45,919 nt of DNA from an uncultured Ignavibacteria bacterium (GTDB lineage: Bacteria; Zixibacteria; MSB-5A5; UBA10806; 4484-95). Positions 7,390 to 31,834 of this stretch are shown piece by piece (position 1 is the first letter of the stretch; each line of letters begins with the position of its first letter). The position numbers and the translations under genes were made by a program. The notes under the pieces were generated by a model that was not told the origin of the DNA, ran no database searches, and saw nothing but the letters and a program-made list of their open reading frames with translations. Location of the stretch: the NCBI GenBank assembly GCA_964521815.1, contig CAZFSN010000001.1:6721-52639 (forward strand). Reading direction: 5' to 3'.

Positions 7390-9435
7390 CTAAGTATGAT
7401 CCGCGTTCTGCTCGTCGCTTCCTTCGCCGGGCTCTTCATCCTTTTTCTCCTCATTTTCCGTGTCGGTTGATTCAGGTGGACATTCCCGCTTCGATTCATC
7501 ACCGCCTTCTTCCGGTATGTCCGCGAGAACCGGATCATTCGGGTGTTCTTCGCGATACATCTCAAGCGGCATTTTACCGGTGTACCACGATGGGTTGTTA
7601 GGGTAAACAGGAGGGTTGAAGATCGTTGAATAGAAATGCCATATGAAGATAGCAAGACAGGCGAGAATCGCCTCATAGAAATGAATCACAAGCATCACCC
7701 CGAGCGCGCCTACCTTAAGGATGTTCTCGGTGATTGTGCCGAACCAGAGGGCGGCGCCGGTGATAGTCATTATCACCGTACCCCAAACGAGCGCCCAGTA
7801 TTCCGCTTTTTCTATATAACTGAATCGGCCGAACCTGGGGGGTTCCCGGCGCAGGCCAAGATCATAGGCCATGGTCTGGAAAAACTGCTGAAAATCTTTG
7901 ATGCGCGGGAAAATGTCGTGCAGGAAACACCAACCACGGCGCCCGAACAAATAGACTAAATGCCACACGGCCGTAGCCATAAACAATACTGCCGCCACAA
8001 GATGAATGGTTCGTCGAGCGATAAAACCGCCCGGCCAACCGAAAAGCAGCCGGACCCACCAGGAACCGGAATAATGAAACGCGAATCCGGTGACAGCCAG
8101 TAAAGTAAAAGTTACCATCAGGGCGGTGTGCTGCCAGAGTTCATTACGGTTCATTCGCACAACTTGCTTACCCTGATTGAGTAATTGTATTTGTTTGCGC
8201 AGATTGATAAGCCAGTGGATCATCATCGCCCCGATAATTACGATAATCGCCGAGATATAAATCGTGCTGACCGTCCGGCCGGTCTTGTTGAGAAAGACCC
8301 CGCTGGTTTTATGGATTTCGATACGCGCCAGTTGCGGCGAGATGCTGGAATGACACTTGGCACAGGTCGACTGCACATTGGCAATCGATATTGATGACGC
8401 CGAATCGGAAACCGGAAGAATCAGGTGGGCGCGATGACACGATGAGCAGTTAGCAACATCAGGGTCGCCATCGGTGCTCTTTAGCCCGTGGTAACTGTGC
8501 CGCCATGATTGCATGATGTTGGTCGGAAGGCCATATTTGATATTCAACTGGTCGTCCTCATGGCAGGGCGCGCAGACTGTCAACGAGGTGCGGGTCGGAC
8601 TGACCCGGGATTCGGGATCGTTCACCGGCAGAATCGCGTGGGAGCCATGACAATCAATGCAGATCGGCGTGTCGGTTTCGCCGCGGGCGGCTGCCTGCCC
8701 ATGCACGCCGCGCTCGTACTCAGATTGAATCTGCTGATGGCATCGCCCGCATGTCCGGGAAATGTTGAAATGATAGATTGTAGATTTCGGGTAAATAGGG
8801 GCGAGAATTTCGTGCGCGGTTTTTTCGGTCGAGTGGCAGTCAATGCAGGTCGCCACGAGGGCGCTGTCGCTGCCCTGAATTCGGGAATGCACGCTTGTCT
8901 GGTAAATTTCCACCGGCTCGATCATCGGGATATTGTACGGACCGACAATCGTCTCGTCTTCATGACAACCGCCGCAAGTAGCCGGGAGATTATTAGGATT
9001 AGCTTTTGATTTAGGATCTGAAGGTTCCAGGATATCATGCGTGCCGTGGCAGTGATGACAATCCGGGAAAAGCTTTCCCGGAGTTTCTTTGTTGAGGCCG
9101 TGGTACTGATAGATCGCGGCGACATCGGTATGACAGCCGCCGCAATCGACCGGAGGCATATTATCCGGATGCGGAAGATTCACGGCGGCAGTGTGACAAT
9201 CGGTGCAGTTCAAACCATCATGGATTGAATTCGCGAAAACAGTGCTGTCAACATAGAGCGACACGGTCTTACCGGTCGAATCGGTTGTGTTGAAGTTACG
9301 GTCGCCGTGACAATCAAGACACTGCGCGGCCAGTAAATTCGGCAAAAGAAGAACCCCCGCCAGCAGGATGTACTTCCACCGCCACCGACAGCCGGCTTTT
9401 CGCCTCGGATTTACGTCAACTTTCGATAAATCCAT
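7390..9435 (-). CDS. Multihaem cytochrome c (11 CXXCH) fused to an FdnI/HydC-type cytochrome b membrane domain (CbcL-like)
   Basis: There is a signal-like N-terminus (WKYILLAGVLLLPNLLAAQ). The 11 CXXCH motifs are CLDCH, CTDCH, CGGCH, CHHCH, CGGCH, CIDCH, CGRCH, CIDCH, CAPCH, CSSCH and CAKCH. One TM helix follows, then a 4-TM b-type domain (WQHTALMVTFTLLAVTGFA, HLVAAV, EKAEYWALVWG, IHFYEAILA). The C-terminal tail is acidic. Confidence 0.85.
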   Translation of the reverse strand: MDLSKVDVNPRRKAGCRWRWKYILLAGVLLLPNLLAAQCLDCHGDRNFNTTDSTGKTVSLYVDSTVFANSIHDGLNCTDCHTAAVNLPHPDNMPPVDCGGCHTDVAAIYQYHGLNKETPGKLFPDCHHCHGTHDILEPSDPKSKANPNNLPATCGGCHEDETIVGPYNIPMIEPVEIYQTSVHSRIQGSDSALVATCIDCHSTEKTAHEILAPIYPKSTIYHFNISRTCGRCHQQIQSEYERGVHGQAAARGETDTPICIDCHGSHAILPVNDPESRVSPTRTSLTVCAPCHEDDQLNIKYGLPTNIMQSWRHSYHGLKSTDGDPDVANCSSCHRAHLILPVSDSASSISIANVQSTCAKCHSSISPQLARIEIHKTSGVFLNKTGRTVSTIYISAIIVIIGAMMIHWLINLRKQIQLLNQGKQVVRMNRNELWQHTALMVTFTLLAVTGFAFHYSGSWWVRLLFGWPGGFIARRTIHLVAAVLFMATAVWHLVYLFGRRGWCFLHDIFPRIKDFQQFFQTMAYDLGLRREPPRFGRFSYIEKAEYWALVWGTVIMTITGAALWFGTITENILKVGALGVMLVIHFYEAILACLAIFIWHFYSTIFNPPVYPNNPSWYTGKMPLEMYREEHPNDPVLADIPEEGGDESKRECPPESTDTENEEKKDEEPGEGSDEQNADHT

Positions 9436-10156: not shown

Positions 10157-10609
10157 ATGAAAAATAGCGGCATTAATATGTCTCAGATGATGGATGGGTT
10201 CAAAAAAGTTTGCAAAACTAAAGGCCTTCGCATAACTCATCAAAGAACTGAGGTCTTCAGAGCTCTTATTCAACATGCAAATCACTCCACAACTGAAGAT
10301 ATTTTCAATCAGGTACGTAAGCATCTAAAGACGATTTCGCTGGATACTGTTTATCGGACCATCGGGACTTTCGAAAAATGCGGCCTGATTAAAAAAGTTC
10401 ACCTTATCGATAACACGACACGTTTTGATCATAACTTATCAAATCATCATCATCTTGTTTGTTCTAAGTGCAGTAAGATAGAAGATTTCTATTGGCCTGA
10501 TTTTGACCAGATGAAACCGCCGATATCTATTTCTCATTGGAGCAACATAGGTGCCAGGCATGTTGTAATCGATGGTTTATGTTCGAGTTGTAGTAAGAAG
10601 AATAAGTAA
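10157..10609 (+). CDS. Fur-family metalloregulator (PerR-like by context)
   Basis: 150 aa. It has a winged-helix N-terminus (ITHQRTEVFRALI), HHHLVCSKCSK and CSSC (a Cys4 site). It lies directly upstream of katG. The start may be Met8 or Met11. Confidence 0.85.
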   Translation: MKNSGINMSQMMDGFKKVCKTKGLRITHQRTEVFRALIQHANHSTTEDIFNQVRKHLKTISLDTVYRTIGTFEKCGLIKKVHLIDNTTRFDHNLSNHHHLVCSKCSKIEDFYWPDFDQMKPPISISHWSNIGARHVVIDGLCSSCSKKNK

Positions 10610-10703
10610 TATTGATGGCATGAAACATTAACTTAATTATGTACTCTAATTAGAATAATGACTAAATTGAACAATATACTTTGTACAACATAACCCCTTA
10701 TAA

Positions 10704-12932
<2,229 letters not shown>

Positions 12933-13705: not shown

Positions 13706-14521
13706 TCATCTAAACTTAATTTCAATATCTTTTATGATATCTACTTCTGACAAGGCCGATCGTATATCTTGCTCAAGAATGCTGCTATCGCCGGGTGGAA
13801 AATGCCCGTCAATTAATATTTTCGAAGTGGACGAATCGGCTACCACCTCTATATCCATTGTCTTAGTTTTGGGGAATCTCATGAGATTAGCTTTCACAAC
13901 ACTCGCCAGATGTATATCCTTCAAAGATTTCATGGATTCCTGAGTCGGCTGAAATTGTTCCTTTTTGACCTCGTTAACAACCAATTCAATCGCATCATCG
14001 ATACTTACCCTCTCTAAATTCAAAACCAGGTCGAAGAAAATAGGATTAAAAACTTCGGCATCATAAAGGAATTGCACCCAGAGCCTTCTCCTGTAGTCCA
14101 TATCCTTTATCCTTTCAATTGCCTTTTCTCTGGGAATTACCATTTCATCCATTAAGGGTTTAACTCGATTCTCAATCGGAGCATTTACCCTGACCCTGAG
14201 AACAAAAGGGACATCGTTGAGAAGGACATGAGCAAGGTTTCCATGATAAATAATTGAACCCCGCAATGCAAAATCCAACAATGCTGTTTTAAAGCAAATG
14301 AGATAGTGCATTCTTTCATTGGCGTGTTCATGCCAGTAACCCGGTGGGTGCGATTCCATAATATCTTTCTCGCCCAGGCCGGTTTCTTCTATCCCGTAGC
14401 GTTTGGCGGCTTCGATCACTTCCTCGCGGCTGATGATCGTATAACCCAATCGCTCCTTAAGTCCTTCTGCCAGCTTTTTCGTGGCATAAAGCGAGCCCCT
14501 TGATATTGCTATGACAGACAT
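13706..14521 (-). CDS. Cytidylate-kinase-like (Cytidylate_kin2-type) family protein with a degenerate P-loop
   Basis: 271 aa. N-terminus MSVIAISRGSLYATKKLAEGLKERLGY resembles the family start ..ItISRe.GSGG.., but the glycine-rich loop is not conserved. Confidence 0.45.
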   Translation of the reverse strand: MSVIAISRGSLYATKKLAEGLKERLGYTIISREEVIEAAKRYGIEETGLGEKDIMESHPPGYWHEHANERMHYLICFKTALLDFALRGSIIYHGNLAHVLLNDVPFVLRVRVNAPIENRVKPLMDEMVIPREKAIERIKDMDYRRRLWVQFLYDAEVFNPIFFDLVLNLERVSIDDAIELVVNEVKKEQFQPTQESMKSLKDIHLASVVKANLMRFPKTKTMDIEVVADSSTSKILIDGHFPPGDSSILEQDIRSALSEVDIIKDIEIKFR

Positions 14522-14729: not shown

Positions 14730-15104
14730 TCAGTAGGTCATTACATTGGTTGCCGCCAGTATCTCCATGACCGCCCTGGCTGCTTTAACCGGCTGGGCTA
14801 TTTTCACCAGCATGTCCGGTGTTATTTTACGTTCCTGAATGCATGGAGTACAAATAAGAAGCGTCCCGCCTTGCTCGATGAATGATAGCATCAGGTCTTT
14901 CAGGGGGGGCAATCCTGCCGCAAACACATGTTCATAACAACCTTCCTTAGCGATATAAACTGCTGAACCCTGGAGCATAATTGTTACTTGTACCTCCATG
15001 ACAAGAGCCGCATTGCCAATGACAAAGGGCAAACATGCACGCTCAGGATCTTCGGGGCCGTGCGTTCCAAAGATTAAAATTTTCTCTGATTTCTCTTCGT
15101 TCAT
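14730..15104 (-). CDS. DsrE/DsrF-family sulfur-relay-like protein
   Basis: 124 aa. It has the DsrE-like fold signature (ILIFGTHGPEDPERACLPFVIGNAA.., LLICTPCIQER). It is the last gene of the Hdr-type operon. Confidence 0.7.
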   Translation of the reverse strand: MNEEKSEKILIFGTHGPEDPERACLPFVIGNAALVMEVQVTIMLQGSAVYIAKEGCYEHVFAAGLPPLKDLMLSFIEQGGTLLICTPCIQERKITPDMLVKIAQPVKAARAVMEILAATNVMTY

Positions 15105-15178
15105 AGTTCACCTCTAAATTTACTCGGGGCGTTTTTTCATAGAAAGAAATTAGACTTTAAAATAAAATTTATCGTTTT

Positions 15179-16171
15179 CTATGTCCGCATTTCCTCTACT
15201 TTCTGGAATTCTCCGCAGTAGGCTTCCACCAAATATTCGGAAATATCTTTAATCTCGATTACTTTATTTCCAGCGGCGTGCTTGAGATTCACGAGGCAAA
15301 TAGGGCACATGGCGACAATATTACCTCCTGCTGAGGCAAGCTGTTCTACCCTTTTTTTAGCAATTGCTTGAGCTTTGCCGGGGAAAAACGACTCAATCGG
15401 TCCACCGCAGCAATGCGTTAGCATTCCGGCGTACTCCGGTTCGATGATAGTTGCTCCTGCTTTCTTCAATAATTGACGCGGCTCTTCGATAATGTGCTCG
15501 TAACGAGCGTAAACACAGGAATCATGAATGGTTATATTCATATCGAGAGCCCGCAGCACCTCCAAATTTTTTGCGGAGAGTTCTTCCAGATAACTTTTCA
15601 CTTCTACTTCGTAGCCTCCAATGTATTTTGGGTATACGTTCCTGAGCATATTTGTAGTGTGTGGGTCGACTGTAATAATAGTTTTGACTCCGTTACGCTT
15701 AAAAACCTCAAACACTCGCTGGGCATGCAACTTAAAAGCATCATCCGCGCCCTCATCGTGAATGAGCGCGCCGGAATACATTTCATCTTCATATAGATAT
15801 CCGAACTGAACGCCTGCCGTTCGGAGCAGTTTGGCAATATTACGCAAGATATTGTTGTAATAGTGTTTTTCCGCAGAATTGGAACGTGCCATAAACCAGG
15901 CGAGGTTAATGAATTTATTCGCAATCCGACCCAGGCCAAAGAATTTCGTGATCCAGGAGTTTTCGAAAAGCGCCATTTGCGCGGCCAACGTTGAAATAGC
16001 CGGCATTAGCTGATACATATGTCCGGTATAAATAATAGTTTCCCCGCCTTTTGGTATGTTCAATCCTTTGGCCCACCAGGTTGTAACGCCAGCGGATAAT
16101 TTCAAGACGCTTTTTCTTTTTAGCAAGTTATCGACCAATATTCCCAGAATGTGTTTCGTAGGTAACGGCAT
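15179..16171 (-). CDS. HdrB-like CCG-domain Fe-S protein; only the C-terminal CCG half retains its cysteines
   Basis: 330 aa. The C-terminal half has HDSCVYAR, THCCGGP and MCPICLVNL. The N-terminal half has no equivalent Cys (TGHMYQL, YSGALIHDEG, TVDPHTTNML). It starts 3 nt after the HdrC-like ORF. Confidence 0.8.
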   Translation of the reverse strand: MPLPTKHILGILVDNLLKRKSVLKLSAGVTTWWAKGLNIPKGGETIIYTGHMYQLMPAISTLAAQMALFENSWITKFFGLGRIANKFINLAWFMARSNSAEKHYYNNILRNIAKLLRTAGVQFGYLYEDEMYSGALIHDEGADDAFKLHAQRVFEVFKRNGVKTIITVDPHTTNMLRNVYPKYIGGYEVEVKSYLEELSAKNLEVLRALDMNITIHDSCVYARYEHIIEEPRQLLKKAGATIIEPEYAGMLTHCCGGPIESFFPGKAQAIAKKRVEQLASAGGNIVAMCPICLVNLKHAAGNKVIEIKDISEYLVEAYCGEFQKVEEMRT

Positions 16172-16174
16172 GAT

Positions 16175-16486
16175 TTACGTCCTCGCTAAACCAAAATATT
16201 TTTTATTAATATAACCACGAAGAATCCTTACATTATCAGCGATCTTGACATCGGCGGGGCAGTTTTGTTCGCACATTTTGCATAAAAGACAGGAGTATAT
16301 TGTCTCCTGATTTTCCAGTACTTTCTTCTCTATTCCCAAAACCACGTAGCGGAATAGCTGTCTGGGCAGAAGATCGAGTCCCATCGGGCAAATAGCGGTA
16401 CAAACACCGCAGTTCATGCATGCAAAAGCATTGAACGATTTCGTGTTTTTTATCTCATCCATAAATTTTGAATCAGTTCCAGCCAT
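16175..16486 (-). CDS. HdrC-like 2x[4Fe-4S] ferredoxin-type subunit
   Basis: 103 aa. Motifs CMNCGVCTAICP and CLLCKMCEQNCP. Confidence 0.8.
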   Translation of the reverse strand: MAGTDSKFMDEIKNTKSFNAFACMNCGVCTAICPMGLDLLPRQLFRYVVLGIEKKVLENQETIYSCLLCKMCEQNCPADVKIADNVRILRGYINKKYFGLART

Positions 16487-16495
16487 GATGTACTC

Positions 16496-16735
16496 CTATT
16501 TGGTCAGTCGATATTTAAAATAGCCCTCGGCGTTCGGTTTACCGGTTTCCTCGAGATAACCATATCTCCACATTGCCATAACCCAAATCATGACATCATA
16601 ACCGGGATAATTAAGGGCTTCGGCAATTTCCGGAATTGTCCTTGGCGATTCATTCAGTTGGGAAATTATCCTGTCTCTCATAATCATTTCATCCCTCATA
16701 ATCTCGGCAATGTTTCGATCAGTTTGGTTTCTCAT
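16496..16735 (-). CDS. Small conserved-looking protein of unknown function (possible winged-helix fold) embedded in the Hdr operon
   Basis: 79 aa. Its start overlaps the upstream stop (TGATG, 16733-16737). It ends 9 nt before the HdrC-like ORF. I recognise no motif. Confidence 0.6.
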   Translation of the reverse strand: MRNQTDRNIAEIMRDEMIMRDRIISQLNESPRTIPEIAEALNYPGYDVMIWVMAMWRYGYLEETGKPNAEGYFKYRLTK

Positions 16736-18459
16736 CAGTTGACCTCTTTTATGAGTGAATCTATCATTGATGTTATCTGAAGGTCTGTATACCCCTCTAT
16801 GTCAATTGCGTTTTGAGGACAAACGGGCACGCAGGCGCCCTCGCCTTTGCATGAAGCGGGCACGACTCGAGCTACTTCTTTGCTCCCAATGGATATTTTT
16901 TCAACCGCATCATAAGGGCAGGCCCTGGTACACTCATCGCACCAAACGCATAGCTCGGGATTTATTCTCGCAATAAGAGGTTCCAGGTCAACGTAGCCTT
17001 TCATGAGCAAGGCCGCGCTTTTGGCAACTGCCGCCATTGAAGAAGCTACGCTTTCGGCCAGTGTTTTGGGTCCCTGGGATGCGCCGGCAATGAACACTCC
17101 ATTAATAACTGTCTCGACCGGCCTGAGTTTGGGGTGAATTTCATTAAAAAAACCATCCTTACCAATCGGGAGTTTTAATACATTATTAAGTTGCTTGTTT
17201 AACCTGGGAACCATTCCCGTGACAAGTACAAGCAGATCGACTTCGATATCAAATTCTTCGCCACCGGTCAGCTGGTCCCTCACCCTTATACATACTTTAT
17301 TATCTATCGATTTAACTTCGGGCCGATCATCATCAGCATACTTAATGAAAATCGCCCCCCTATTAAGACTTTCAGTATATAGAAGTTCATACCTGCCATA
17401 CGTCCTCATGTCGCGGTATAAATGGTATTGATGAATATCCTGGTTTTTTTCCGCCACACAAAGGGAGGTATGAACCGTAGCGGTACAGCAATATCTTGAG
17501 CAATAAAGATTAGGATTTTCCATCTCAGGCGATTGGCGGCTGCCGACACAATAAATATAGGCAATGTCTTTAACTTCGCGCTCCTGAAAACCAAGAGATC
17601 CGTTGGAATTATCTATTAGCTGCTTGAACTCGGGAAATGTGACAACCCTCTCTTGACCATAGCCAAACTCACCCTCAGCAGGTTTATATGATTCAAAACC
17701 GGTAGCGACAATTATCGAGCCGACATTTAGAGAAATAACCTCTTTATCCTTGATTTGCACAACTACCGAGAAATTACCGATATTGCCGGCTTTTTCTGCA
17801 AGTTCAGCATTAGTGAAAATCGTGATATTGTCGCGCTGTTTCGCTTCATCAACAAGGGTTCCAATGAGATCACCGCCTTTATGATTGGCGGAAAACATCC
17901 GGCCGAATTTCGCTGTCCAGCCGCCAACTTCGGATTCCTTCTCGATTACAAAAACAGCAAAACCCATATCAGCCAGTGATAGCGCAGCCCGCAATCCAGC
18001 CACGCCAGCGCCGATTACCAGCACCTTAGGCGTTGTTTCGATTCTCAAGTTCACTAAGGGCCTGGTCAAGGTGCACTTTGCTATTCCGGCCCTGACAAGC
18101 CTTATACCCTTTTCGGTAGCCAAATCTTTTTCATGCTGATGAACCCAGGAATTCTGTTCTCTGAGGTTGACTTGCACATACTGATACGGGTTCAATCCCG
18201 CCCGTTCCGCCATAGCCCGGAATGTATAAAGGTGCAATTTTGGCGAACAGGACGCGATCACCAGGCCATCGAGGTTATTAATCCTGATATCCTCAATCAT
18301 TTCCTGTTGACTAGCATCCGAACAGGCAAACATGGATGTCTTAGCAACTACTACTCCCTGATCATTGCTTATTGCATCTCTAATTTTTTCGACATCCACG
18401 TAGTCTGAGATATTTCCGCCGCAGTAACAGATATATACGCCGATTTTTCTATAAGTCAT
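16735..18459 (-). CDS. HdrA-type flavoprotein (classical architecture)
   Basis: 574 aa. It has the N-terminal Cys domain (IGVYICYCGGNISDYVDV), an FAD fold (VLVIGAGVAGLRAA), YCVGSR..YCSRYCC, and a C-terminal CVWCDECTRACP / CKGEGACVPVCP pair. There is an ATGA overlap with the upstream gene. Confidence 0.85.
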   Translation of the reverse strand: MTYRKIGVYICYCGGNISDYVDVEKIRDAISNDQGVVVAKTSMFACSDASQQEMIEDIRINNLDGLVIASCSPKLHLYTFRAMAERAGLNPYQYVQVNLREQNSWVHQHEKDLATEKGIRLVRAGIAKCTLTRPLVNLRIETTPKVLVIGAGVAGLRAALSLADMGFAVFVIEKESEVGGWTAKFGRMFSANHKGGDLIGTLVDEAKQRDNITIFTNAELAEKAGNIGNFSVVVQIKDKEVISLNVGSIIVATGFESYKPAEGEFGYGQERVVTFPEFKQLIDNSNGSLGFQEREVKDIAYIYCVGSRQSPEMENPNLYCSRYCCTATVHTSLCVAEKNQDIHQYHLYRDMRTYGRYELLYTESLNRGAIFIKYADDDRPEVKSIDNKVCIRVRDQLTGGEEFDIEVDLLVLVTGMVPRLNKQLNNVLKLPIGKDGFFNEIHPKLRPVETVINGVFIAGASQGPKTLAESVASSMAAVAKSAALLMKGYVDLEPLIARINPELCVWCDECTRACPYDAVEKISIGSKEVARVVPASCKGEGACVPVCPQNAIDIEGYTDLQITSMIDSLIKEVN

Positions 18460-21245
18460 GACCTGATTTTCACCCTTTCCATGTATGCCGCTGCCTGGGC
18501 TACCGCGGCACCCGAGTGGACTATGCTATCGGGAATATCCCTGGGGGCAGAGGCTGCCCCGGCCACGAATACCCCATCCACACTAGTTTTGCCGGGATTT
18601 ATGTCTTCATCTACTTCTCTAATATAGCCCTGCAAATCATCCTCAACATTGCAGTTGCTAAACATCTGTTTAAAATCAACATTGGCCGAGAAACCGGTTG
18701 AGAGAACCACCAGATCGTGTTCTGCCTGTTTCAAACCGCCGTTCCCATTAATGCTTTCATACTGCAGATTGAGGTTACCGTTTTCCAGCTCATGAATTTG
18801 TGCAACTCTGCCTTTGACGAAGTACACTCCCATCCCCTTAGCCTGCTCATAAAACTCATCGTAACCTTTGCCGAATGCTCTGATATCAATATAGTAAATG
18901 GTTACATCCGCAAGAGGTAGAGCCCCCATGATCAGTTGTGCCTGTTTTATCGAATACATACAACAAACCCTGGAGCATATTGGATTACCGATTAAGCAAT
19001 CCCGTGATCCGGCACACAAAACATAGGCAATATTATCAGGCGCTTTACCGTCAGAAGGTCGAATTACATGATTATAAGGCCTGGTTGGGGCCAGAATACG
19101 ATCCATTTGCATGGCTGTAATGACATTGGGATACTTCCCATAGCCATAGGTCGGTTTTCGATGAGCATCAAAAAGGTTAAACCCTGTTGAAATAATTACA
19201 GATTTTACCTCAAAACTCCGCTCTTCATCACCCAGGGTAAAATCAATAGCATTCGCCGGGCAGGCTTTTACACATTCATGGCATTCAGAACAGATACCGC
19301 AATCAAGGCATCGGTTAGCTTCGTAGCGCGTCGCCTCTTCTGTTAAAGGAACCTCTACCTCCGCCATATTGCGAATACGCTCAGCAACGGGGAGTTCCCG
19401 TTTCTCGACGGGCATGCGACTGGACAATGGCTTTCGAGGTATTTCTTCTCCGACTACAGGAGGCTGATAATCGCCTGGGGAACCGTTACCATCATTATCA
19501 TTATTGGATTGAAACCGCGAGAGCACAGAGGAAGCCGTCGGGGGCGGAAGTCTCTTATCGAATGCAATTCCGTCGAGCGATTCGTCTTTTAGAAATCTAT
19601 CAATATAAAATGCCGCCCGCTTTCCCTGACCGATCGCGCTGACAATCATGGACGGTCCGGTAACAGCATCACCCCCCGCAAAAACCGATGATTGAGATGT
19701 TTGGAGAGTTTCCTTATTTACCAGAATTGTGCCATTGCGGTTAAGCTCTAATTCTGAGGCGAAAGGCGAAGTGCTTGGTTTCAAGCCTATAGCAATTATC
19801 GCCAGGTCAACAGGAATGATATGTTCGGAGCCGGACACCGGTATTGGCCGCCGGCGGCCACTTTCGTCGAGCTCGCCAAGTTCCATGGCTAAGCTCTCCA
19901 CTGCTTCCAGATGATCGTTTTCCCCCAGAAATCGTACAGGATTCTTGAGTACCTGAAGCTCGACTCCCTCTTCCAGGGCTGCTGTGACTTCCCAGTCGTG
20001 TGCCGGCATCTCCGCCCGGCTCCGACGGTATTGGATAATGACCTTATCGGCCCCCAAGCGGATTGCCACTCTGGCAGGATCAATAGCTGAATTGCCCCCA
20101 CCGATCACCATGACTGTTTTTCCGCTCAGGTTCATATTATTGGATGAGTTAGCCTGTTTAAGAAATGTCATACAATCAGTAACGCCATTTAACTCTTCAC
20201 CCTTGATGGCCATTTTCATTCCTTCCATTGTTCCCAGGGCAAGAAAAGTAGCATCGAAGCCTTTATTCCCGAGCGATTCCAGGGAACTGATGGGTGAGTC
20301 GGTTTCAATCGATACACCAAGGGCAGTAATGTTTTTTATATCCCGATCTACAACATCATTAGGCAAACGGTAGGCTGGTATCCCATATCGCAGCATACCT
20401 CCCGGCCTGGCTGCCGACTCGAAAATCGTTACTCGATATCCATTTCGCGCCAGATGGTAAGCTGCCGAAAGACCTGCCGGTCCCGAACCGACCACAGCTA
20501 TTTTTTTATCTTTAATTTCTTCAGGGGGCCCGTATTCCGGTTGGGGATGGTTTGCATAGTAACGGTCAGCTAAGAAGCGCTTAATCGCTCGAATCGGTAC
20601 GGTTCCCTCAAGATTGCCTCTGGTACATTCTTCCTCACAGGGAGCATAGCAAGCTCGGCTCAAGCAGCCGGGAAGCGGGGCATCCTCCATATGCAGATGG
20701 AATGCCTCATCGTACTTTCCCCGGCGAATTAACGATACATAGCCATGGGCTTTGACTCCCGCCGGGCAGGCGAAAGAACAGGGAGAAGTCCCATCTCGTT
20801 CCATTACTGCCTTCTTGGGAACAGCTTGAGGGAAAGGAATATGTATAGCTCGATGAGCAACGAGATCGAAATTATATGGATCAACCGTTGCTACCGTGCA
20901 CGCCAACTCACATTCTCCGCAACCGGTGCAAGCTGTGGAATTTACATAAATCGATTTTTTTCGCAATCTAACCAGGAAACTACCGTTGTCTTGCTTGTTA
21001 ATCTCTTCTATTTCGCTGGACGTGGATACAGTAATATTAGGATGATGAGCAGTTGAAGCCATTTTCGGCGTGGATATGCAGCTGGCACAGTCGAGTGTCG
21101 GAAAAACTTTGCTCAAAAGAACCATTTTACCACCGATGCTGGCTTGTTTTTCCACCAACAGCACTTTATACCCCATATCCCCCAGCGTCAGGGACGATTC
21201 CATCCCTGCTATGCCGCCACCTACAACCAGTACATCATAGTCCAT
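18456..21245 (-). CDS. Mosaic HdrA-type flavoprotein with an inserted GltD/NfnB-type NAD(P)H-binding Fe-S flavoprotein module (HdrL-like)
   Basis: 929 aa. The HdrA parts are VLVVGGGIAG, CTGCGECELAC, and later CLDCGICSECHECVKACP, CAGSRD..CSRVCCMY, FVAGAA. The insert is CSFACPAG..RACYAPCEEEC, VVGSGPAGLSAA, IGGGNSAID, FAGGD. Confidence 0.85.
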   Translation of the reverse strand: MDYDVLVVGGGIAGMESSLTLGDMGYKVLLVEKQASIGGKMVLLSKVFPTLDCASCISTPKMASTAHHPNITVSTSSEIEEINKQDNGSFLVRLRKKSIYVNSTACTGCGECELACTVATVDPYNFDLVAHRAIHIPFPQAVPKKAVMERDGTSPCSFACPAGVKAHGYVSLIRRGKYDEAFHLHMEDAPLPGCLSRACYAPCEEECTRGNLEGTVPIRAIKRFLADRYYANHPQPEYGPPEEIKDKKIAVVGSGPAGLSAAYHLARNGYRVTIFESAARPGGMLRYGIPAYRLPNDVVDRDIKNITALGVSIETDSPISSLESLGNKGFDATFLALGTMEGMKMAIKGEELNGVTDCMTFLKQANSSNNMNLSGKTVMVIGGGNSAIDPARVAIRLGADKVIIQYRRSRAEMPAHDWEVTAALEEGVELQVLKNPVRFLGENDHLEAVESLAMELGELDESGRRRPIPVSGSEHIIPVDLAIIAIGLKPSTSPFASELELNRNGTILVNKETLQTSQSSVFAGGDAVTGPSMIVSAIGQGKRAAFYIDRFLKDESLDGIAFDKRLPPPTASSVLSRFQSNNDNDGNGSPGDYQPPVVGEEIPRKPLSSRMPVEKRELPVAERIRNMAEVEVPLTEEATRYEANRCLDCGICSECHECVKACPANAIDFTLGDEERSFEVKSVIISTGFNLFDAHRKPTYGYGKYPNVITAMQMDRILAPTRPYNHVIRPSDGKAPDNIAYVLCAGSRDCLIGNPICSRVCCMYSIKQAQLIMGALPLADVTIYYIDIRAFGKGYDEFYEQAKGMGVYFVKGRVAQIHELENGNLNLQYESINGNGGLKQAEHDLVVLSTGFSANVDFKQMFSNCNVEDDLQGYIREVDEDINPGKTSVDGVFVAGAASAPRDIPDSIVHSGAAVAQAAAYMERVKIRS

Positions 21246-21337
21246 AAGAAGTCACCTTCCGTTGCGCGAATCGAATTCGAATCTTTGGGATTATTATTGT
21301 TAAATGGCAAAGCATAACATTCACTTTGCTTTTCTGT

Positions 21338-21784
21338 TCATTGCACATTGATTTTCATAAGTGCTTCTTGAAATTTTTCCATGTGAGACTGAAATGATTC
21401 TGCACAGACTGAGCAAATTGCTGCCATTTTAAGCCTTTTTGGATCATGGCCATGCTCTTCAAGCAACAATTGCGCCTTTTTGACTATTTCGCCAGTTCTT
21501 TTAGTGCAATCAGGCAGATAGGCGCAATCTGTTCCATCCGCAGCAATAAAAATCCCATCGAATCCTGCCTCTATTGCGTGCAGTACCCATGAAGGCCTAA
21601 TACCGCTGGAACACGGGACAGGTATTACCATAATAGATGGTGAATAAGGCATATGTGAGCCCCCGGCCAAGTCAATTCCCGGATCGGAAATATTATTGGT
21701 AGAGAAAACCAATATTTTGGGCTTGTTGCCGACAGTTTGCGTAGCTTGCAACATTATTTCATCCGGCGCACAAAGATCCGCCAA
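21338..21784 (-). CDS. MvhD-like (methyl-viologen-reducing hydrogenase delta subunit family) Fe-S protein
   Basis: 148 aa. Motifs: KILVFSTNN, VPCSSGIRPSWVLHAIEAGFDGIFIAADGTDCAY. A more likely start is Met11 at 21754, which gives a TAATG overlap with the TusA-like stop. Confidence 0.8.
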   Translation of the reverse strand: MADLCAPDEIMLQATQTVGNKPKILVFSTNNISDPGIDLAGGSHMPYSPSIMVIPVPCSSGIRPSWVLHAIEAGFDGIFIAADGTDCAYLPDCTKRTGEIVKKAQLLLEEHGHDPKRLKMAAICSVCAESFQSHMEKFQEALMKINVQ

Positions 21785-22008
21785 TAACCGGCTTCCTCGA
21801 CATTTCCAAGATACTCATGACCTACTTTTTTGCACCAGAGAGGAATGTCATCGTTTGTCCCTTCGTCTGATGAAAGCACTTCCATAATAGCATTCACGGG
21901 AACCGCTGCTATACCTCTTTTTGCTTCAAGCAAAGGGCCGGGACAAGCGGTGCCACGAGCATCAACGGTTTTGTTAACTGTCAAAGTTTTTAATTCTTCT
22001 TTTTCCAT
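21754..22008 (-). CDS. TusA-family sulfur carrier protein
   Basis: 84 aa with the CPxP motif in DARGTACPGPLLEAKRGI. It is the first gene of the Hdr-type operon. Confidence 0.85.
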   Translation of the reverse strand: MEKEELKTLTVNKTVDARGTACPGPLLEAKRGIAAVPVNAIMEVLSSDEGTNDDIPLWCKKVGHEYLGNVEEAGYWRIFVRRMK

Positions 22009-22109: not shown

Positions 22110-22679
22110 CTAAATATTCACTGCTGTTTCAAAACCCTCTCTTACTGCGTCATAAATTTGCCGAGGCCGCCCGGCATCGCCAATTGTTTTCATTTCGATT
22201 AGCTGTTTTGTCATAGCCTCCGGTGTCGCACCGGTTGATAGGCAAGCAACTTCGGATGGAACCACCGGCTTTTGGCCTATTACTTTCGGATTGGCCGCCC
22301 GGCCGGCATGGTTAATATGAGCTATTGCTAAGATGCCGCCACTGTGAATTGCCTTTACTAAACCCTTAAGTTCATTAACATGGTCATAATTGGAAATACC
22401 GAGCTGTTTGGGATGATCCTTTCCCAAAGCGTCTATGAATAAAGGTTCTACGATTATTGCACCAACTCTCCCTTCTGCCCACCGATGGTAGTATGCCTCA
22501 TGCCGGAACGTAACCCCACTTGTGAGGCTGCCATATCCTGTTTTTACGGGTGCCATTAGTAATCTGTTAGGCAATTCAAGCGAACCAAGCCTGAAAGGCG
22601 CGAATGGATCCACAGTCATCTCCTGAGTTTTTATCTTTATCTCTTTGCAAACCGGCTTTTTTCTATTCTTTGAGTACAC
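22110..22679 (-). pseudogene. Remnant of an Old-Yellow-Enzyme/2,4-dienoyl-CoA-reductase-type flavoprotein (N-terminal ~140 aa joined to a ~25-aa C-terminal end)
   Basis: From Met21 (22619) the sequence reads MTVDPFAPFRLGSLELPNRLLMAPV...HINHAGRAANP..PSEV, which is typical of an OYE N-terminus. It then jumps to KTIGDAGRPRQIYDAVREGFETAVNI, which looks like the end of an FAD/NAD domain. Total length is 169-189 aa, against more than 330 aa expected. Confidence 0.55.
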
Positions 22680-22989
22680 ACCAGACTATGAAAATGGTAG
22701 CCCCTGTTTTCGTAGTGAATGGTCCATGACCGATTTCCTTGGGAATAATGCGAAATGTTCCACTTGAGTAAGTTTCGCCCTGGCTTTCGTATTCTCCCTC
22801 CAGAACATAATGTAACTCCGTATGAGTGTGAGAATGACTGTCCATACTCCATCCAGGGGGAATCTTCAATAGAATGCTCCGGGGGGCCATGTCACTACCG
22901 ATACTGAGCACCTTTTCCTTTGCTCCAGTAGCATAGATCAATGAATCTTGCCATTCCACGTTATTGGCATTGATATTCACACTATTCAT
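22663..22989 (-). CDS. Cupin-domain protein (ChrR-like cupin)
   Basis: 108 aa. Motifs: PPGWSMDSHSHTHTELHYVLEGEY.....G.F..IPKEIGHGP. Confidence 0.7.
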   Translation of the reverse strand: MNSVNINANNVEWQDSLIYATGAKEKVLSIGSDMAPRSILLKIPPGWSMDSHSHTHTELHYVLEGEYESQGETYSSGTFRIIPKEIGHGPFTTKTGATIFIVWCVLKE

Positions 22990-22995
22990 TTTTTG

Positions 22996-23457
22996 TCACC
23001 TGCCAACCTTATTGATAAATCTTATTTCGCTATGGGCCCTGTTAATATACCTGAAAGTTTTTTCAGCGCCCGCATCCGATGATAATATTACAACACCGGC
23101 TCTCACCCGATCATTTCTGACATCTTTATGATACGACAAGGGTTCGTCTGTAATTACAGCTGTTGGCAGATCCATTTCCTGTTTGGTTAAATGTATCAGC
23201 CGGCCCAAGTCCTCGCATAATGCAGGTTCCCCATCTCCCACGAAGGTGGTGTAATCCGGTTTATAATTTTGAGATCTTTCTTGGATTTCAGAAAATATTT
23301 CCTGTTTTGGACAAAAGCTGTTTATGGCAACCCGCAGGTATTTTGTTCGGCCTAACTGACAATATACCCAGGAGTATGAGCAGGTTTTTAGTGGGATCGG
23401 GCTAACCCCCATGGAGCGTCCTAATCTTCGCGATGGAACCGGTCCATAAGTAAACAT
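22996..23457 (-). pseudogene. Truncated radical-SAM family gene (YGPVPSRRLG-type) with a Cys-to-Trp change in the CxxxCxxC motif
   Basis: 153 aa. It starts MFTYGPVPSRRLGRSMGV. The cluster motif reads CSYSWVYCQLG, with TGG at 23368-23370 where the paralogue at 35.3 kb keeps Cys. It ends shortly after INRAH, so the C-terminal half of the barrel is missing. Confidence 0.55.
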
Positions 23458-24289: not shown

Positions 24290-24652
24290 TTAATAATTCA
24301 TCTGACGGGCGCCGGTCGGCTCTGTCCCGAGAAGGTCAACTATCAGCTCATTCAAATCCGCATGTTTTGATTCAATAAAAACCCCGGTATTGCCCATTAC
24401 GACCACAACATACTTGCCGGCCCATACGGCCCAGCCAATAAGCGGCTGCCATTCCATCGTAGCTTTAATTTCGAAAAATTTGGTCAGTTCGTTCAGTTTC
24501 TGATTCTGATAGGCACAAATTTTGGCGGTTTCTTCTATTATTTCATCAGCGATTACGCCGACTTTGCGGATGACTTTGCCGGTATCGGAAAACTGTCCTG
24601 CCGCCACAACCCCCTTGATTTTTATTAACCTGTCGAGCCCTATCATAATCAT
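24290..24652 (-). CDS. DUF2173-like / roadblock-LC7-like small protein
   Basis: 120 aa. LIKIKGVVAAGQFSDTGK..., recalled as resembling DUF2173. It has a strong RBS (AAGGAGGA) and a -24/-12 promoter upstream. Confidence 0.5.
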   Translation of the reverse strand: MIMIGLDRLIKIKGVVAAGQFSDTGKVIRKVGVIADEIIEETAKICAYQNQKLNELTKFFEIKATMEWQPLIGWAVWAGKYVVVVMGNTGVFIESKHADLNELIVDLLGTEPTGARQMNY

Positions 24653-24688: not shown

Positions 24689-24704
24689 AGCATAATTTGT
24701 GCCA
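24689..24704 (-). promoter_or_regulatory. Candidate sigma-54 (-24/-12) promoter for the DUF2173-like operon
   Basis: The minus strand reads TGGCAC-AAATT-ATGCT with correct GG-N10-GC spacing. It lies about 37 nt upstream of the ATG at 24652. Confidence 0.55.
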
Positions 24705-24874: not shown

Positions 24875-26260
24875 TCAGGAATGCGAAGGGATTGCCAAGC
24901 CCAGTTTTTTGATTTTTCGGTAAAGGGTTGACGCATTTATGCCCAGCTCCCGGGCTGTCTTTTTACGGCTCCAGTTGTTTTTTTTCAAAGCTGCTATAAT
25001 AAACAAAGATTCCATTTCATTCATCGTACTGGCAATTTCAACTGCCGGTATCACTCGCTTCTCCTGAAGATATTCAGGTAAATGTTCAGCTTTGATTACT
25101 CCACCGGGAGAAAGAATAAAGGCATGCTCTATTATATTTTCCAGCTCACGGATATTGCCGGGGAAGTTATGCTTCATTAACAAGGCTAAAGCTGGCTGCG
25201 CCATACCGGATATGTTCTTATTGCGCAATTTATTGAATTGATCTATAAAATGATCAATCAACAAAGGAATATCACCCTTTCTATCTCGTAGAGGCGGCAA
25301 CACTATTTTAACTACATTGATACGGTAGTATAAATCCTGCCTGAACGTTCCGCGGGATACGAGTTCTTCGAGCTGCTTATTTGTTGTAGTAATTATCCTT
25401 ACATCCGACTTTTCGGATTGAGTACTACCTAAGGGTTCATAATTTTTCTCCTGGAGGACTCGAAGCAGCTTCACCTGCATAGCCGGCGAAATATCCGCGA
25501 TTTCATCCAGCAGCAAGGCGCCTTTATCGGCAATTGCGAATCGTCCCTTTTTATCCTTCTTGGCGTCGGTGAAAGCGCCAGCCTTATAACCAAATAGCTC
25601 CGATTCAAGAAGAGTATCAGGAAGAGCACCGCAATTTATGCTTACAAAAGGTTCGGCTTTGCGGGGGCTTAGATTATGCAAGGCCTGAGCTACTAATTCT
25701 TTCCCTGTCCCGCTTTCACCTTCTATCAGCACCGAGCTTTCACTTTGGGCGATTGTAGGCAGAATTTTGAAAAGTTCAAGCATTTTATGATCCTGGCTGA
25801 TTATATTTTCAAATGAAAATATTACCGTGAATTCCTTACGCAGTTTTTCAACCATGTTGAGATCACGGAACGTTTCAACACCGCCTGTTATATTTCCCTT
25901 ATTATCTTTTAGAAGGGCCGTGGAAACACTAATAGGGATCCGCTGCCCTCTCTTATTTGTCATGCATACCAACTTGTTTATTACGGGTTTTCGGGAAGAC
26001 ATCGTCCGTTGCAGCGCGCACCCTTTATCGCAAATATTAGTCTGCAATATATCGGCGCATTTTTTCCCCAGAGCTGCGCTTTTGCTATATCCAGTAATTC
26101 TCTCCGCCGCCTTATTCAAAAAAGTAATCTTGTAATCCAGATCCACAGTAAAAACACCATCCGATATGCTATCTATCATTGTCAGTAATTTTTCACACGT
26201 AAGTTCATCTTTAAGAACAAGATCGGGATTTGATGTCTTATGTTTATTTTTGACAGCCAT
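24875..26260 (-). CDS. Sigma-54-dependent transcriptional activator (PAS - AAA+ - Fis HTH)
   Basis: 461 aa. It has a PAS domain (SISDGVFTVD), Walker A GESGTGKE, GAFTDA loop, and a C-terminal HTH (ARELGINASTLYRKIKKLG). There is no receiver domain. Confidence 0.9.
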   Translation of the reverse strand: MAVKNKHKTSNPDLVLKDELTCEKLLTMIDSISDGVFTVDLDYKITFLNKAAERITGYSKSAALGKKCADILQTNICDKGCALQRTMSSRKPVINKLVCMTNKRGQRIPISVSTALLKDNKGNITGGVETFRDLNMVEKLRKEFTVIFSFENIISQDHKMLELFKILPTIAQSESSVLIEGESGTGKELVAQALHNLSPRKAEPFVSINCGALPDTLLESELFGYKAGAFTDAKKDKKGRFAIADKGALLLDEIADISPAMQVKLLRVLQEKNYEPLGSTQSEKSDVRIITTTNKQLEELVSRGTFRQDLYYRINVVKIVLPPLRDRKGDIPLLIDHFIDQFNKLRNKNISGMAQPALALLMKHNFPGNIRELENIIEHAFILSPGGVIKAEHLPEYLQEKRVIPAVEIASTMNEMESLFIIAALKKNNWSRKKTARELGINASTLYRKIKKLGLAIPSHS

Positions 26261-26790: not shown

Positions 26791-28098
26791 TCAAGCTATG
26801 CCTAACGTTTTCATCTTGCGCCAGAGCGTGGAGCGATGCATTTCCAATTCGGCAGCGGATTTTGCTTTATTGCCTTTATTGCGTTTTAAAACTTCGAGAA
26901 TAACGCTTTTTTCGCTTTTATGGTTTGTATCGGGTTTAAGGCCGGCAATTTGATAATTGGTTATATGCGGCGGTAGATGTTCTAATTCTATCTCCTGACC
27001 ATGGCACATGACAAAAGCGTGTTCTATGGCATTCTCCAGCTCGCGAACATTGCCTGGCAGGGGATGATTGCGCAGCGTCGCAAGAGCTTCGGAAGATATA
27101 CGCTTAACCTGTTTTTTGCTTTTTTTCCTGAATAGCTTGATAAAATGATTTACCAGTAAAGGTATATCCTCGGGCCGGTCGCTCAGTTGGGGGATATTGA
27201 TATTAACTACATTGATACGGTAATACAAATCGCGCCGGAATTTCCCTGCCTCGATGAGATCATTCAGTTTTGCGTTTGTGGCGGCTATAATTCGCGCATC
27301 AGTGTGAAGCGTTTTGGCTGAGCCCAGGGGTCGGTATTCGCCGTTGTTTAATACGCGGAGGAGTTTCACCTGAAGAGAATTATCCATCTCACCTATCTCA
27401 TCCAAGAGAAGCGTACCTCCGCTGGCGAGACTGAACTGGCCGGGTTTATCACGCTTGGCATCTGTGAAAGCACCCTTCTCATAACCAAACAGTTCCGATT
27501 CGAGCAGATTCGCCGGCAATGCCGCGCAGTTAATCTTGATATACGGACCATACCGCCGAGGGCTTAAATTATGAATCACCTGCGCGAACAGTTCCTTACC
27601 CGAGCCGCTTGGCCCCTCGATTAACACATTGCACTCCGATTCGGCGACATCAGGAAGCAGCCTTATTAAGCCGTGCATCTGGGAATTGACACTGACTATA
27701 TCATCAAGGGCTTGTTTTTGTTCGAGGCTTTTCCGCAGATGCTCTATCTCGGATATATCCTGGAAAAATTCAACGGCGCCGACAATGTTATCGTTCTCGT
27801 CTTTTAGCATCGTGGTTGTTACCCTTATCGGTAACTCGCGGCCGTCCCTGGTAATAATGGTTACCCGGGCATCATCCACCGAGGAATGAGTTTTAAGCGT
27901 ATCTTTCAGTGCGCATTGAGTGTGACAAACCTCGGTTCTGAATATATCAAAACAATGCTTGCCAATCGCTTCTGTTCTTTTAAAACGAGTGATTCTTTCG
28001 GCTGATTTATTGAATGAGGTAATTACACAATTGCGATCAACCGTGAAAACGCCATCGCGTATGCTATTGAATATTAACTGACTTAATTTTTTTTCCAT
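26791..28098 (-). CDS. Sigma-54-dependent transcriptional activator (PAS - AAA+ - Fis HTH), paralogue of 24875..26260
   Basis: 435 aa. It has a PAS domain (SIRDGVFTVD), Walker A GPSGSGKE, GAFTDA loop, and an HTH (AAELEMHRSTLWRKMKTLG). Confidence 0.9.
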   Translation of the reverse strand: MEKKLSQLIFNSIRDGVFTVDRNCVITSFNKSAERITRFKRTEAIGKHCFDIFRTEVCHTQCALKDTLKTHSSVDDARVTIITRDGRELPIRVTTTMLKDENDNIVGAVEFFQDISEIEHLRKSLEQKQALDDIVSVNSQMHGLIRLLPDVAESECNVLIEGPSGSGKELFAQVIHNLSPRRYGPYIKINCAALPANLLESELFGYEKGAFTDAKRDKPGQFSLASGGTLLLDEIGEMDNSLQVKLLRVLNNGEYRPLGSAKTLHTDARIIAATNAKLNDLIEAGKFRRDLYYRINVVNINIPQLSDRPEDIPLLVNHFIKLFRKKSKKQVKRISSEALATLRNHPLPGNVRELENAIEHAFVMCHGQEIELEHLPPHITNYQIAGLKPDTNHKSEKSVILEVLKRNKGNKAKSAAELEMHRSTLWRKMKTLGIA

Positions 28099-29843: not shown

Positions 29844-29869
29844 AATTTACTCTCCTGAGATAAGTAATT

Positions 29870-31803: not shown

Positions 31804-31834
31804 ACCATAAAAAAAAATTAGTTCGAGGATCAAT

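Follow-up and report, generated by a model that had tools for sequence, protein, structure and literature searches.

A widespread gene cluster joining an HdrL/HdrA pair to TusA and DsrE sulfur carriers, and its possible role in NAD(P)H-linked reduction of carrier-bound sulfane sulfur

The stretch of DNA analysed here (the window, 45,919 nt, to which all coordinates refer) carries eight open reading frames (ORFs) that lie on the minus strand and are read from 22008 to 14730. They encode a set of heterodisulfide-reductase-like (Hdr-like) redox proteins, headed by the sulfur carrier TusA and closed by a carrier of the DsrE family:

21754-22008, minus strand: tusA, first gene of the operon, an 84-aa sulfur carrier (PF01206, E 1.9e-21)
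21338-21784 (TTG ORF), minus strand: mvhD/flpD, a [2Fe-2S] electron-transfer subunit (PF02662 positions 1-122 of 123, E 7.8e-28)
18456-21245, minus strand: hdrL, a 929-aa HdrA-type flavoprotein with a GltD/NfnB-type insertion
16735-18459, minus strand: hdrA, a 574-aa HdrA paralogue (481 bits to HdrA2)
16496-16735, minus strand: orf79, a 79-aa acidic, Cys-free winged helix specific to the cluster
16175-16486, minus strand: hdrC-like, a 103-aa ferredoxin with two [4Fe-4S] clusters
15179-16171, minus strand: hdrB-like, two CCG-fold domains (PF02754, E 1e-15), the putative catalytic subunit
14730-15104, minus strand: dsrE family, a 124-aa sulfur carrier (PF02635, E 1.7e-12)

All eight appear in the ORF list at these coordinates. 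An earlier note, made from the DNA letters alone, had described eight same-strand ORFs linked by three start/stop overlaps, and coordinates and sequence reproduce each junction. The HdrL and HdrA ORFs overlap by 4 nt (18456-18459), the HdrA and orf79 ORFs by 1 nt (16735), and the tusA stop reads TAATG with the in-frame Met11 of the MvhD ORF (ATG 21752-21754). This ATG is likely the true MvhD start, overlapping the tusA stop; in fact, the gene calls of relatives begin MvhD at the equivalent of Met11 (137 aa in locus L002). The remaining intergenic gaps measure 92, 9, 3 and 74 nt. Pfam and NCBIfam searches agree with the families that had been called from motifs (TusA, MvhD, HdrA::GltD, HdrC-like, CCG and DsrE). 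An Rfam scan of the window returned one tRNA and nothing in 14730-22008, and public assemblies have no exact match to the HdrL protein on record.

We fetched 80 related loci (numbered with an L here) and searched the window's eight proteins against them; the counts given per protein rest on orthologue alignments of differing size (36 to 81). Essentially every locus with a long enough contig carries tusA-mvhD-hdrL-hdrA-orf79-hdrC-hdrB on one strand, and protein identity across loci is 52-82%. The closest relatives remain colinear with the window at the DNA level (71-74% identity over 7.3 kb), with a different upstream flank. The proposal that these genes are a functional unit is supported by some 50 other genomes that have the same gene order. 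All eight genes are genuine and make up a conserved cluster.

How widely is this cluster distributed? At E <= 1e-10 the protein collection contains 1669 relatives of the HdrB-like protein, and those with a name come mostly from Zixibacteria. Taken as a marker, the HdrB-like protein is encoded in 348 genomes of a scan with one genome per species. The seven-gene core spans at least 12 phyla plus archaea. Its hosts include Zixibacteria, Ignavibacteria, Calditrichaeota, Hydrogenedentes, Chloroflexota (Dehalococcoidia, Anaerolineae), Kiritimatiellales with the cultured Pontiella sulfatireligans F21 and Pontiellaceae B12227, Verrucomicrobiota/Lentisphaerae, Planctomycetota, Acidobacteriota, Nitrospiraceae, Gemmatimonadota, Delta-, Alpha- and Betaproteobacteria, and three Thermoplasmata archaea. 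Anaerobic lineages predominate among them, and the majority are not known to oxidise sulfur. The cluster is horizontally spread and strongly conserved. Genes for IS200-like and IS66-family transposases lie directly downstream of it in Pontiella sulfatireligans F21 (L049, 10116-13581), which fits horizontal spread; among the PLSDB plasmids we found no orthologue, only CCG proteins below 33% identity. Three loci from long-read assemblies (L061, L075 and L083) show apparent split genes, which we read as frameshift errors and not as pseudogenes, and in L083 hdrC and hdrB are called as a single gene of 376 aa.

The carrier genes belong to this conserved unit. A lack of conserved TusA and DsrE neighbours in related genomes had been named beforehand as one of the findings that would overturn the proposal, but the neighbourhood holds: tusA stands upstream of mvhD, at the head of the core, in every locus with enough contig, and in 44 of the 46 loci with both flanks a profile search of flank ORFs places a same-strand gene of the DsrE family no more than 1.5 kb from the core. 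Among these 44, the 124-aa type lies downstream in 26, as in the window, a type of about 180 aa (DrsE_2) lies upstream in 24, and six loci have both. All 57 TusA orthologues have the Cys22 of the ACPGP motif; the DsrE-family protein of the window has C85-x-x-C88 and C56 conserved in 36.

The cluster has a pair of HdrA paralogues that divide between them what methanogen HdrA has in one polypeptide. HdrL scores 497 bits to PRK12771 and 466 bits to HdrA2. Its HdrA-type parts (residues 1-120 and 645-927) enclose a GltD/NfnB-type module with flavin adenine dinucleotide (FAD), NAD(P)H and two [4Fe-4S] sites (144-560), which splits the inserted ferredoxin domain of HdrA between its two CxxCxxCxxxC motifs. 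HdrL begins straight at the FAD fold, with neither an N-terminal cluster domain nor a C-terminal ferredoxin domain; the FPTLDCxxC pair and a C-x12-C-x3-CC group are retained. Across 54 orthologues the conserved cysteines are C53/C56, C106-C116, C156-C207, C646-C662 and C744/C757/C762. The NAD(P)H module that had been noticed within one HdrA is intact and conserved, with GSGPAG, GGGNxAID, YRR and all cluster cysteines kept in the same orthologues; from what is known of GltD/NfnB enzymes, we take the YRR triplet to suggest NADPH. The best structural-sequence matches of the insertion are NfnA of NfnABC and chains of NfnB type, NfnB/NfnI-L (E 1e-106 to 1e-76), and HdrL as a whole scores 356 bits to the best methanogen HdrA chain (9sfi_A) versus 143 bits to sHdrA (6tjr_A).

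The 574-aa HdrA is, in domain terms, the complement of HdrL. It has the N-terminal four-Cys domain, the FAD domain and the C-terminal two-cluster ferredoxin domain, and aligns to the methanogen HdrA 5odc_A (375 bits, versus 116 bits to sHdrA 6tjr_A) in two stretches that skip about 75 residues, the inserted ferredoxin domain. FSANHKGG stands in place of the methanogen FPTNDCSIC, and no Cys column occurs there in any of 65 orthologues. Thus the earlier note was mistaken in calling this HdrA classical: the inserted ferredoxin domain and the FPTxDCxxC motif are both missing, and both are supplied by HdrL. The second C-terminal cluster motif (residues 537-547, 16819-16851) reads CKGEGACxxxCP, where methanogens have CKGCGTCxxxCP; a conserved Glu takes the place of one Cys ligand, which suggests that this cluster is unusual or retuned. 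The FAD domains of the two paralogues are only 28% identical, and their duplication is therefore old. This complementary split of domains holds in every orthologue, and every accessory module present twice in the methanogen HdrA homodimer occurs once in HdrL and HdrA taken together. From these sequences we infer that HdrL and HdrA would form an obligate asymmetric heterodimer. The apparent splitting of HdrA functions between two paralogues is a point absent from the earlier note.

The smaller electron-transfer subunits also keep their cysteines. Five cysteines of MvhD are invariant, and the HdrC-like protein has two CxxCxxCxxxCP motifs whose eight cysteines are invariant in 77 orthologues; it matches the HdrC model TIGR03290 (E 2e-14) over positions 3-78 of 144 only, the ferredoxin half. 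The HdrB-like protein had been recognised as a CCG subunit, and it does belong to the CCG family, but only one CCG motif is kept, a point that had been missed. Pfam finds a single CCG match (residues 213-297), and in 81 orthologues C219, C254, C255, C289 and C292, all in the C-terminal half, are the only conserved cysteines. The N-terminal half is equally conserved: invariant YTG(H/Q)MYQ, E70, S72, D139 and D169-P-H-T-T replace the Cys motif. A sequence search of the PDB found M. smegmatis EtfD and matched no methanogen HdrB. The AlphaFold model (predicted local distance difference test, pLDDT, 80; predicted template-modelling score, pTM, 0.84) has two Rossmann-like CCG-fold domains, and its nearest Foldseek neighbour is the HdrD-like part of M. 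smegmatis EtfD (template-modelling score, TM, 0.68; E 7e-11), followed by LutA (E 8e-7) and then by methanogen HdrB chains (TM 0.5, E 6e-5 to 1e-3). As read from its motifs, one complete CCG motif is the pattern of DsrK, HmcF and TmcB. A DsrK-like protein encoded elsewhere in the window also has a single CCG match and aligns with the HdrB-like protein over the CCG motif.

The 79-aa protein, the nature of which the earlier note left aside, lies between hdrA and hdrC in nearly all loci; its homologue follows hdrB in L050 (7369-7617, Acidobacteriota) and L060 (2110-2355, Phycisphaerae). Databases annotate it as 'MarR family' or hypothetical, and the family is small: 1.84 billion proteins yielded 92 representative clusters at E <= 1e-10. 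AlphaFold predicts a confident winged helix (pLDDT 90) resembling SmtB/CzrA. The median isoelectric point is 5.3, versus 9.2 for the ArsR proteins encoded upstream of many clusters, and the 'recognition' helix is hydrophobic (WVMAMWRYG). Acidic, Cys-free, with a hydrophobic helix and encoded among structural genes, this protein is therefore better seen as a subunit than as a DNA-binding regulator; probably it is a structural or adaptor subunit. A kinship with DsrD was considered and dropped, the top 50 Foldseek hits being generic ArsR/SmtB/MarR winged helices with no DsrD among them. The upstream ArsR-family gene, on the same strand as the core, is present in 30 of 50 loci, and its product has one Cys with 97% conservation and a second with 65%. 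Its sequence is that of a generic ArsR/SmtB protein, BigR and SqrR coming only in the middle of the hit list; its identification as a persulfide sensor of the BigR/SqrR type was rejected, the conserved cysteines not aligning with theirs.

Is this cluster new? Fusion of HdrA with a glutamate-synthase-type part was defined as HdrL in 2009 in Desulfobacterium autotrophicum, and locus VIII of strain HRM2 is described as a tandem hdrL/hdrA4 with hdrC, hdrB and mvhD (PMC2702500). In Syntrophobacter fumaroxidans, HdrABC/HdrL (Sfum_0819-0824), accompanied by MvhD and an Fe-S protein, is reported as abundant protein on sulfate (PMC5947623), and an HdrL-like protein beside FdhAB and MvhD is described in Desulfurivibrio dismutans (PMC12142623). 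Our cluster is like those of HRM2 and S. fumaroxidans in having HdrL beside MvhD, a second HdrA, one HdrC/HdrB pair and no hydrogenase. In fact, an HdrA fused to a GltD-type NAD(P)H domain beside mvhD, the mark of an HdrL cluster, is what we find here. For the sulfate reducers, NADH-linked confurcation or bifurcation to a sulfur-related thiol/disulfide has been proposed (PMC2702500; PMC5947623). By their published descriptions, those clusters come with an FdhB-like Fe-S protein, several with selenocysteine, whereas TusA, DsrE, the 79-aa winged helix and ArsR, which we find here, do not figure in those descriptions. It had been stated that the set matches none of the described systems. That holds for the methanogen, sHdr, Qmo and Flx types, but HdrL and the tandem hdrL/hdrA-hdrC/hdrB-mvhD arrangement were already described. 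Likewise, MvhD without hydrogenase had been offered as a distinguishing trait: there is indeed no hydrogenase here, but such MvhD proteins are common. A full-text search, not extending to the HdrA(BC) review of Appel et al. 2021 (BBA Bioenergetics 1862:148379), which may classify it, found no published description of the tusA-mvhD-hdrL-hdrA-x-hdrC-hdrB unit. The cluster is a new variant within the Hdr-like enzymes.

Other members of this class differ further. The sHdr-LbpA gene set is hdrC1B1A-hyp-hdrC2B2 with lbpA, tusA and dsrE. As in sHdr, the hdr genes are tied here to TusA and DsrE-family transferases and to ArsR-type regulation, and a small gene stands between hdrA and hdrC. Unlike sHdr, all loci have one hdrC-hdrB pair after hdrA-orf79 and not two; HdrA is of the long methanogen type, whereas sHdrA is short (about 350 aa, an FAD domain with one cluster); the cluster further has HdrL, MvhD and an integral NAD(P)H module; and the hosts are mostly anaerobes. 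No LbpA or lipoate families occur among the window ORFs of at least 110 aa or the recurrent flank clusters, small ORFs having been scanned in part. The earlier note had listed LbpA, QmoC, FlxABCD, apr and dsrAB as missing from the window, and for ORFs of at least 110 aa there is no Pfam or NCBIfam match to them or to QmoA/B; outside the operon the statement does not extend to shorter, unscanned ORFs.

With methanogen MvhADG-HdrABC (5odc, 8rvu, 7bkb) the cluster shares the HdrA FAD domain with its N- and C-terminal cluster domains, MvhD, a two-cluster HdrC and the CCG fold. It departs from HdrABC by distributing HdrA functions over two paralogues, by the GltD module inserted in the ferredoxin domain, by an HdrB that keeps one of two CCG Cys motifs and by an HdrC of half length; no MvhA/MvhG or Fdh donor is found in the window or among the recurrent flank genes of the 80 loci, and these hosts, unlike methanogens, have no coenzyme M or coenzyme B. 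QmoABC differs in that no QmoC, AprAB or Sat occurs in the operon or its flanks; the HdrC-like protein matches QmoC weakly, in the ferredoxin part (37 bits, cut-off 300). From Flx-Hdr the cluster has only an MvhD/FlxD-like protein, and NAD(P)H binding would be a matter of the GltD insertion of HdrL and not of FlxA/B/C.

At the catalytic end, the analogy is with DsrK, HmcF and TmcB, subunits of DsrMKJOP and its relatives that act on the DsrC trisulfide. They share the single complete CCG motif in a two-domain protein, and here too the substrate would be sulfur on a small carrier protein. The HdrB-like protein matches these models weakly, far below their cut-offs (23 bits versus 400). Moreover, they are subunits of membrane complexes fed by quinol or cytochromes, whereas the HdrB-like protein would be soluble and fed by HdrC/HdrA/HdrL. 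At the NAD(P)H end, the module with FAD, NAD(P)H and two [4Fe-4S] clusters is that of NfnAB, NfnABC and DsrL, the last being described as an NAD(P)H:acceptor oxidoreductase of GltD/NfnB type that serves DsrAB (PMC7596348). Unlike these, it is inserted here inside an HdrA polypeptide, with no partner of NfnA/PyrK type and no DsrAB. Finally, NADH-dependent persulfide/polysulfide reductases of the coenzyme A-disulfide-reductase-rhodanese type have the same proposed chemistry, from carrier-bound sulfane sulfur to H2S in the cytoplasm, but are unrelated single-polypeptide flavoenzymes without Fe-S clusters, in which bifurcation is impossible.

What could such a complex do? We favour, at somewhat less than an even chance, the idea that an asymmetric HdrL/HdrA complex couples NAD(P)H, probably together with a second carrier, to the reduction of sulfane sulfur bound to TusA/DsrE. 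MvhD, HdrL, HdrA, orf79, HdrC and the HdrB-like protein would make up a soluble Fe-S flavoprotein complex, with TusA and the DsrE-family protein as its dedicated substrate shuttles. HdrA would give the N-terminal cluster domain and the C-terminal ferredoxin domain, and HdrL the inserted ferredoxin domain and the CxxC pair. NAD(P)H would be oxidised at the GltD-type flavin within the inserted ferredoxin domain of HdrL, and electrons would pass from this flavin through Fe-S clusters to the HdrA-type flavin, then by way of HdrC to the single non-cubane [4Fe-4S] site of the HdrB-like subunit. There, the CCG site would reduce sulfane sulfur (a persulfide, a polysulfide or a carrier tri- or disulfide) on TusA/DsrE, with release of H2S and regeneration of the carrier thiols. 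Because MvhD and the C-terminal ferredoxin domain of HdrA are strictly conserved, a third redox partner such as ferredoxin may take part, so that the complex would be three-terminal, bifurcating or confurcating. DsrK acts on protein-bound trisulfide, and in four loci coenzyme A-disulfide-reductase-rhodanese genes are found close to the cluster; both count in favour of this chemistry. The reductive direction is favoured because of the host range, mostly anaerobes. We envision a cytoplasmic sulfur-reducing electron sink or a means of sulfane-sulfur detoxification in anaerobes, an operon that an ArsR-type regulator would switch in most genomes.

Several points weigh against this picture. With S(0)/H2S at a standard potential of about -270 mV, bifurcation from NAD(P)H would have little energy to draw on; at standard potentials the margin is thin, and bifurcation would become feasible with a reduced NADPH pool and low sulfide. 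The CCG domain is also present in enzymes other than disulfide reductases (LutA, GlcF, GlpC, EtfD), and the closest structure is EtfD. Some hosts belong to sulfur-oxidising groups (Thiobacillaceae, Rhodocyclaceae, Rhodoferax), fitting the reverse direction. As for regulation, the ArsR Cys positions differ from those of the persulfide sensors BigR and SqrR, and the window has no ArsR gene at all. A bolder proposal, which we consider rather unlikely, is that the cluster encodes a distinct flavin-based electron-bifurcating class, in which HdrL/HdrA, with two potentially bifurcating flavins (HdrA-type and NfnB-type), would couple NAD(P)H, ferredoxin and carrier persulfide. This would be an energy-conserving cytoplasmic sulfur reductase, spread horizontally through at least 12 bacterial phyla into archaea.

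The main rival runs the same carriers in the opposite direction, as in sHdr: sulfane sulfur from TusA/DsrE would be oxidised to sulfite, with the GltD module replacing the LbpA route to NAD(P)+, or the complex would be part of sulfur disproportionation. TusA, DsrE and an ArsR-type regulator by hdr genes are described as the sHdr hallmark (PMC11094781), the small 'hyp' gene has the same place between hdrA and hdrC in sHdr as here, the Thiobacillaceae, Rhodocyclaceae and Rhodoferax hosts would fit, and a study of metagenome-assembled genomes read Hdr genes clustered with TusA, a similar cluster, as sHdr-like oxidation (PMC8542988). Yet there is one HdrCB pair and not two, LbpA/lipoate genes are missing from the scanned window ORFs and the recurrent flank genes, HdrA sides with the methanogen protein (375 bits versus 116 to sHdrA), and MvhD and the ferredoxin domains have no counterpart in sHdrA. 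Most hosts belong to fermentative or strictly anaerobic lineages, and at standard potentials the reduction of NAD(P)+ by sulfane sulfur going to sulfite is strongly endergonic. On balance we find oxidation distinctly improbable. A general NAD(P)H-linked bifurcating disulfide reductase, working like HdrABC/HdrL or Flx-Hdr on DsrC, a low-molecular-weight thiol or a protein disulfide, with TusA/DsrE accessory or regulatory, seems unlikely as well. Sulfate reducers do have HdrL-HdrA-HdrCB-MvhD sets, with no TusA reported, and these sets are abundant in sulfate reduction and were proposed to reduce DsrC (PMC2702500; PMC5947623). The DsrE CxxC pair could also itself be a redox-active disulfide. But in nearly every genome TusA and DsrE-family genes accompany the core, which speaks for their direct involvement, and most host lineages are not known to have dsrAB/dsrC, a further point against this alternative.

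Two other explanations fare worse than these. Selenium handling, in which the complex would reduce selenotrisulfide or perselenide on TusA/DsrE-like carriers for selenide supply, is very improbable. It draws on weak matches of TusA to YedF selenium-metabolism models (E 4.5e-5), of HdrL to YgfK (320 bits), and of HdrL and the CCG protein to NF045663, 'dicluster-binding protein near Sec genes', but the YedF, YgfK and NF045663 scores are far below the family cut-offs, TusA scores higher to TusA models, and no selD, selA or yedE is found among the recurrent neighbours. Chance adjacency or an annotation artefact, in which the eight genes do not cooperate, has a negligible probability. No promoter or terminator signal delimits the operon, sigma-70 promoter and terminator scans being at chance level, and its boundaries are not drawable from them. 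Still, order and strand recur in about 50 bacterial and archaeal genomes at the protein identities given above, stop and start codons overlap, and the 7.3 kb of colinear DNA is shared with relatives of differing flanks; chance adjacency is refuted by this synteny.

Reduction of carrier-bound sulfane sulfur is our favoured reading, and the cluster offers a way into a wider question. There are many Hdr-like complexes outside methanogens, and a substrate is known for almost none. With TusA/DsrE shuttles hard-wired into a gene cluster conserved across domains, the substrate question becomes directly testable, and cultured carriers (Pontiella sulfatireligans F21 and Pontiellaceae B12227) make experiments possible now. 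If the reading is true, the cluster would show at the molecular level how fermentative and other anaerobes can reduce zero-valent sulfur in the cytoplasm, among them Zixibacteria, Ignavibacteria, Dehalococcoidia, Anaerolineae, Kiritimatiellales and Thermoplasmata, lineages that are plentiful in sulfidic sediments but have no classical sulfur reductases; it would also provide a marker gene set for sulfur cycling in metagenomes. The bifurcating class, if real, would account for hidden sulfur cycling, and for the use of sulfur reduction as an electron sink, in lineages without Dsr, Psr or Sre. The HdrA modules split over two paralogues are a natural single-sided version of the methanogen HdrA dimer, which could help to assign branches in electron bifurcation.

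Around the operon, three further genes recur near the cluster in other loci:

13706-14521, minus strand: candidate ninth gene, cytidylate-kinase-like, 271 aa (PF13189, E 1.8e-23), 208 nt downstream of dsrE
24290-24652, minus strand: DUF2173 protein (Pfam), near the cluster in 13 loci
24875-26260, minus strand: PAS-sigma54 activator (Pfam), near the cluster in 18 loci

The cytidylate-kinase-like gene lies directly downstream on the same strand in 12 loci including the window and is a clade-specific neighbour; its region is colinear with L003, L004 and L006 at 75-77% DNA identity. The DUF2173 protein and the PAS-sigma54 activator are possible regulators of the operon. Sigma-54 control of the operon itself was rejected, there being no -24/-12 match upstream of tusA despite the nearby activators, and window-wide such matches are at chance level (26 versus 19.7 expected). 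Two of these, each with one mismatch and both on the minus strand, lie at 24689-24704, 37 nt upstream of the DUF2173 gene (start 24652), and at 29869-29884, 26 nt upstream of a DUF1847 gene (start 29843). The DUF2173 and DUF1847 genes each adjoin a PAS-sigma54 activator gene (24875-26260 and 26791-28098).

In the place of ArsR (22110-23457, minus strand), there stand in the window an old-yellow-enzyme gene that is truncated (it covers only profile positions 3-129 of 342), a cupin, an unassigned 153-aa ORF, and also OsmC. A short radical-SAM fragment lies at 35302-35763 (plus strand), and the PAS-sigma54/DUF2173 block has the opposite orientation to that in L003, L004 and L006. The truncated gene, the fragment and the inversion look like local rearrangement and gene decay. 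In other loci, coenzyme A-disulfide-reductase-rhodanese genes lie near the cluster in four cases, and a FadL/TodX outer-membrane channel gene is found in ten, mainly from Kiritimatiellales and Verrucomicrobiota, downstream of hdrB (L037, L040, L043, L053-L055, L057, L064, L066 and L080). One may speculate that this channel is an uptake route for hydrophobic sulfur.

The window holds a second CCG system, a membrane redox complex of Hmc/Tmc/Dsr-like type (30364-35290, plus strand). It comprises the DsrK/HmcF-like protein (290 bits to DsrK, below the cut-off), an HmcE/TmcC-like anchor, an HmcB-like Fe-S protein and an HmcC/NrfD-like membrane protein fused to a multihaem cytochrome c. Another fusion, of 681 aa (7390-9435, minus strand), joins a multihaem cytochrome c of c7/c3 type to a cytochrome b561/FdnI-like membrane domain. 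At 10157-12932 (plus strand), a Fur-family regulator gene is followed by that of the catalase-peroxidase KatG, amid an otherwise anaerobe-like gene set, and a perfect TGGCAC-N5-TTGC match lies inside the Fur gene on the opposite strand (10541-10556).

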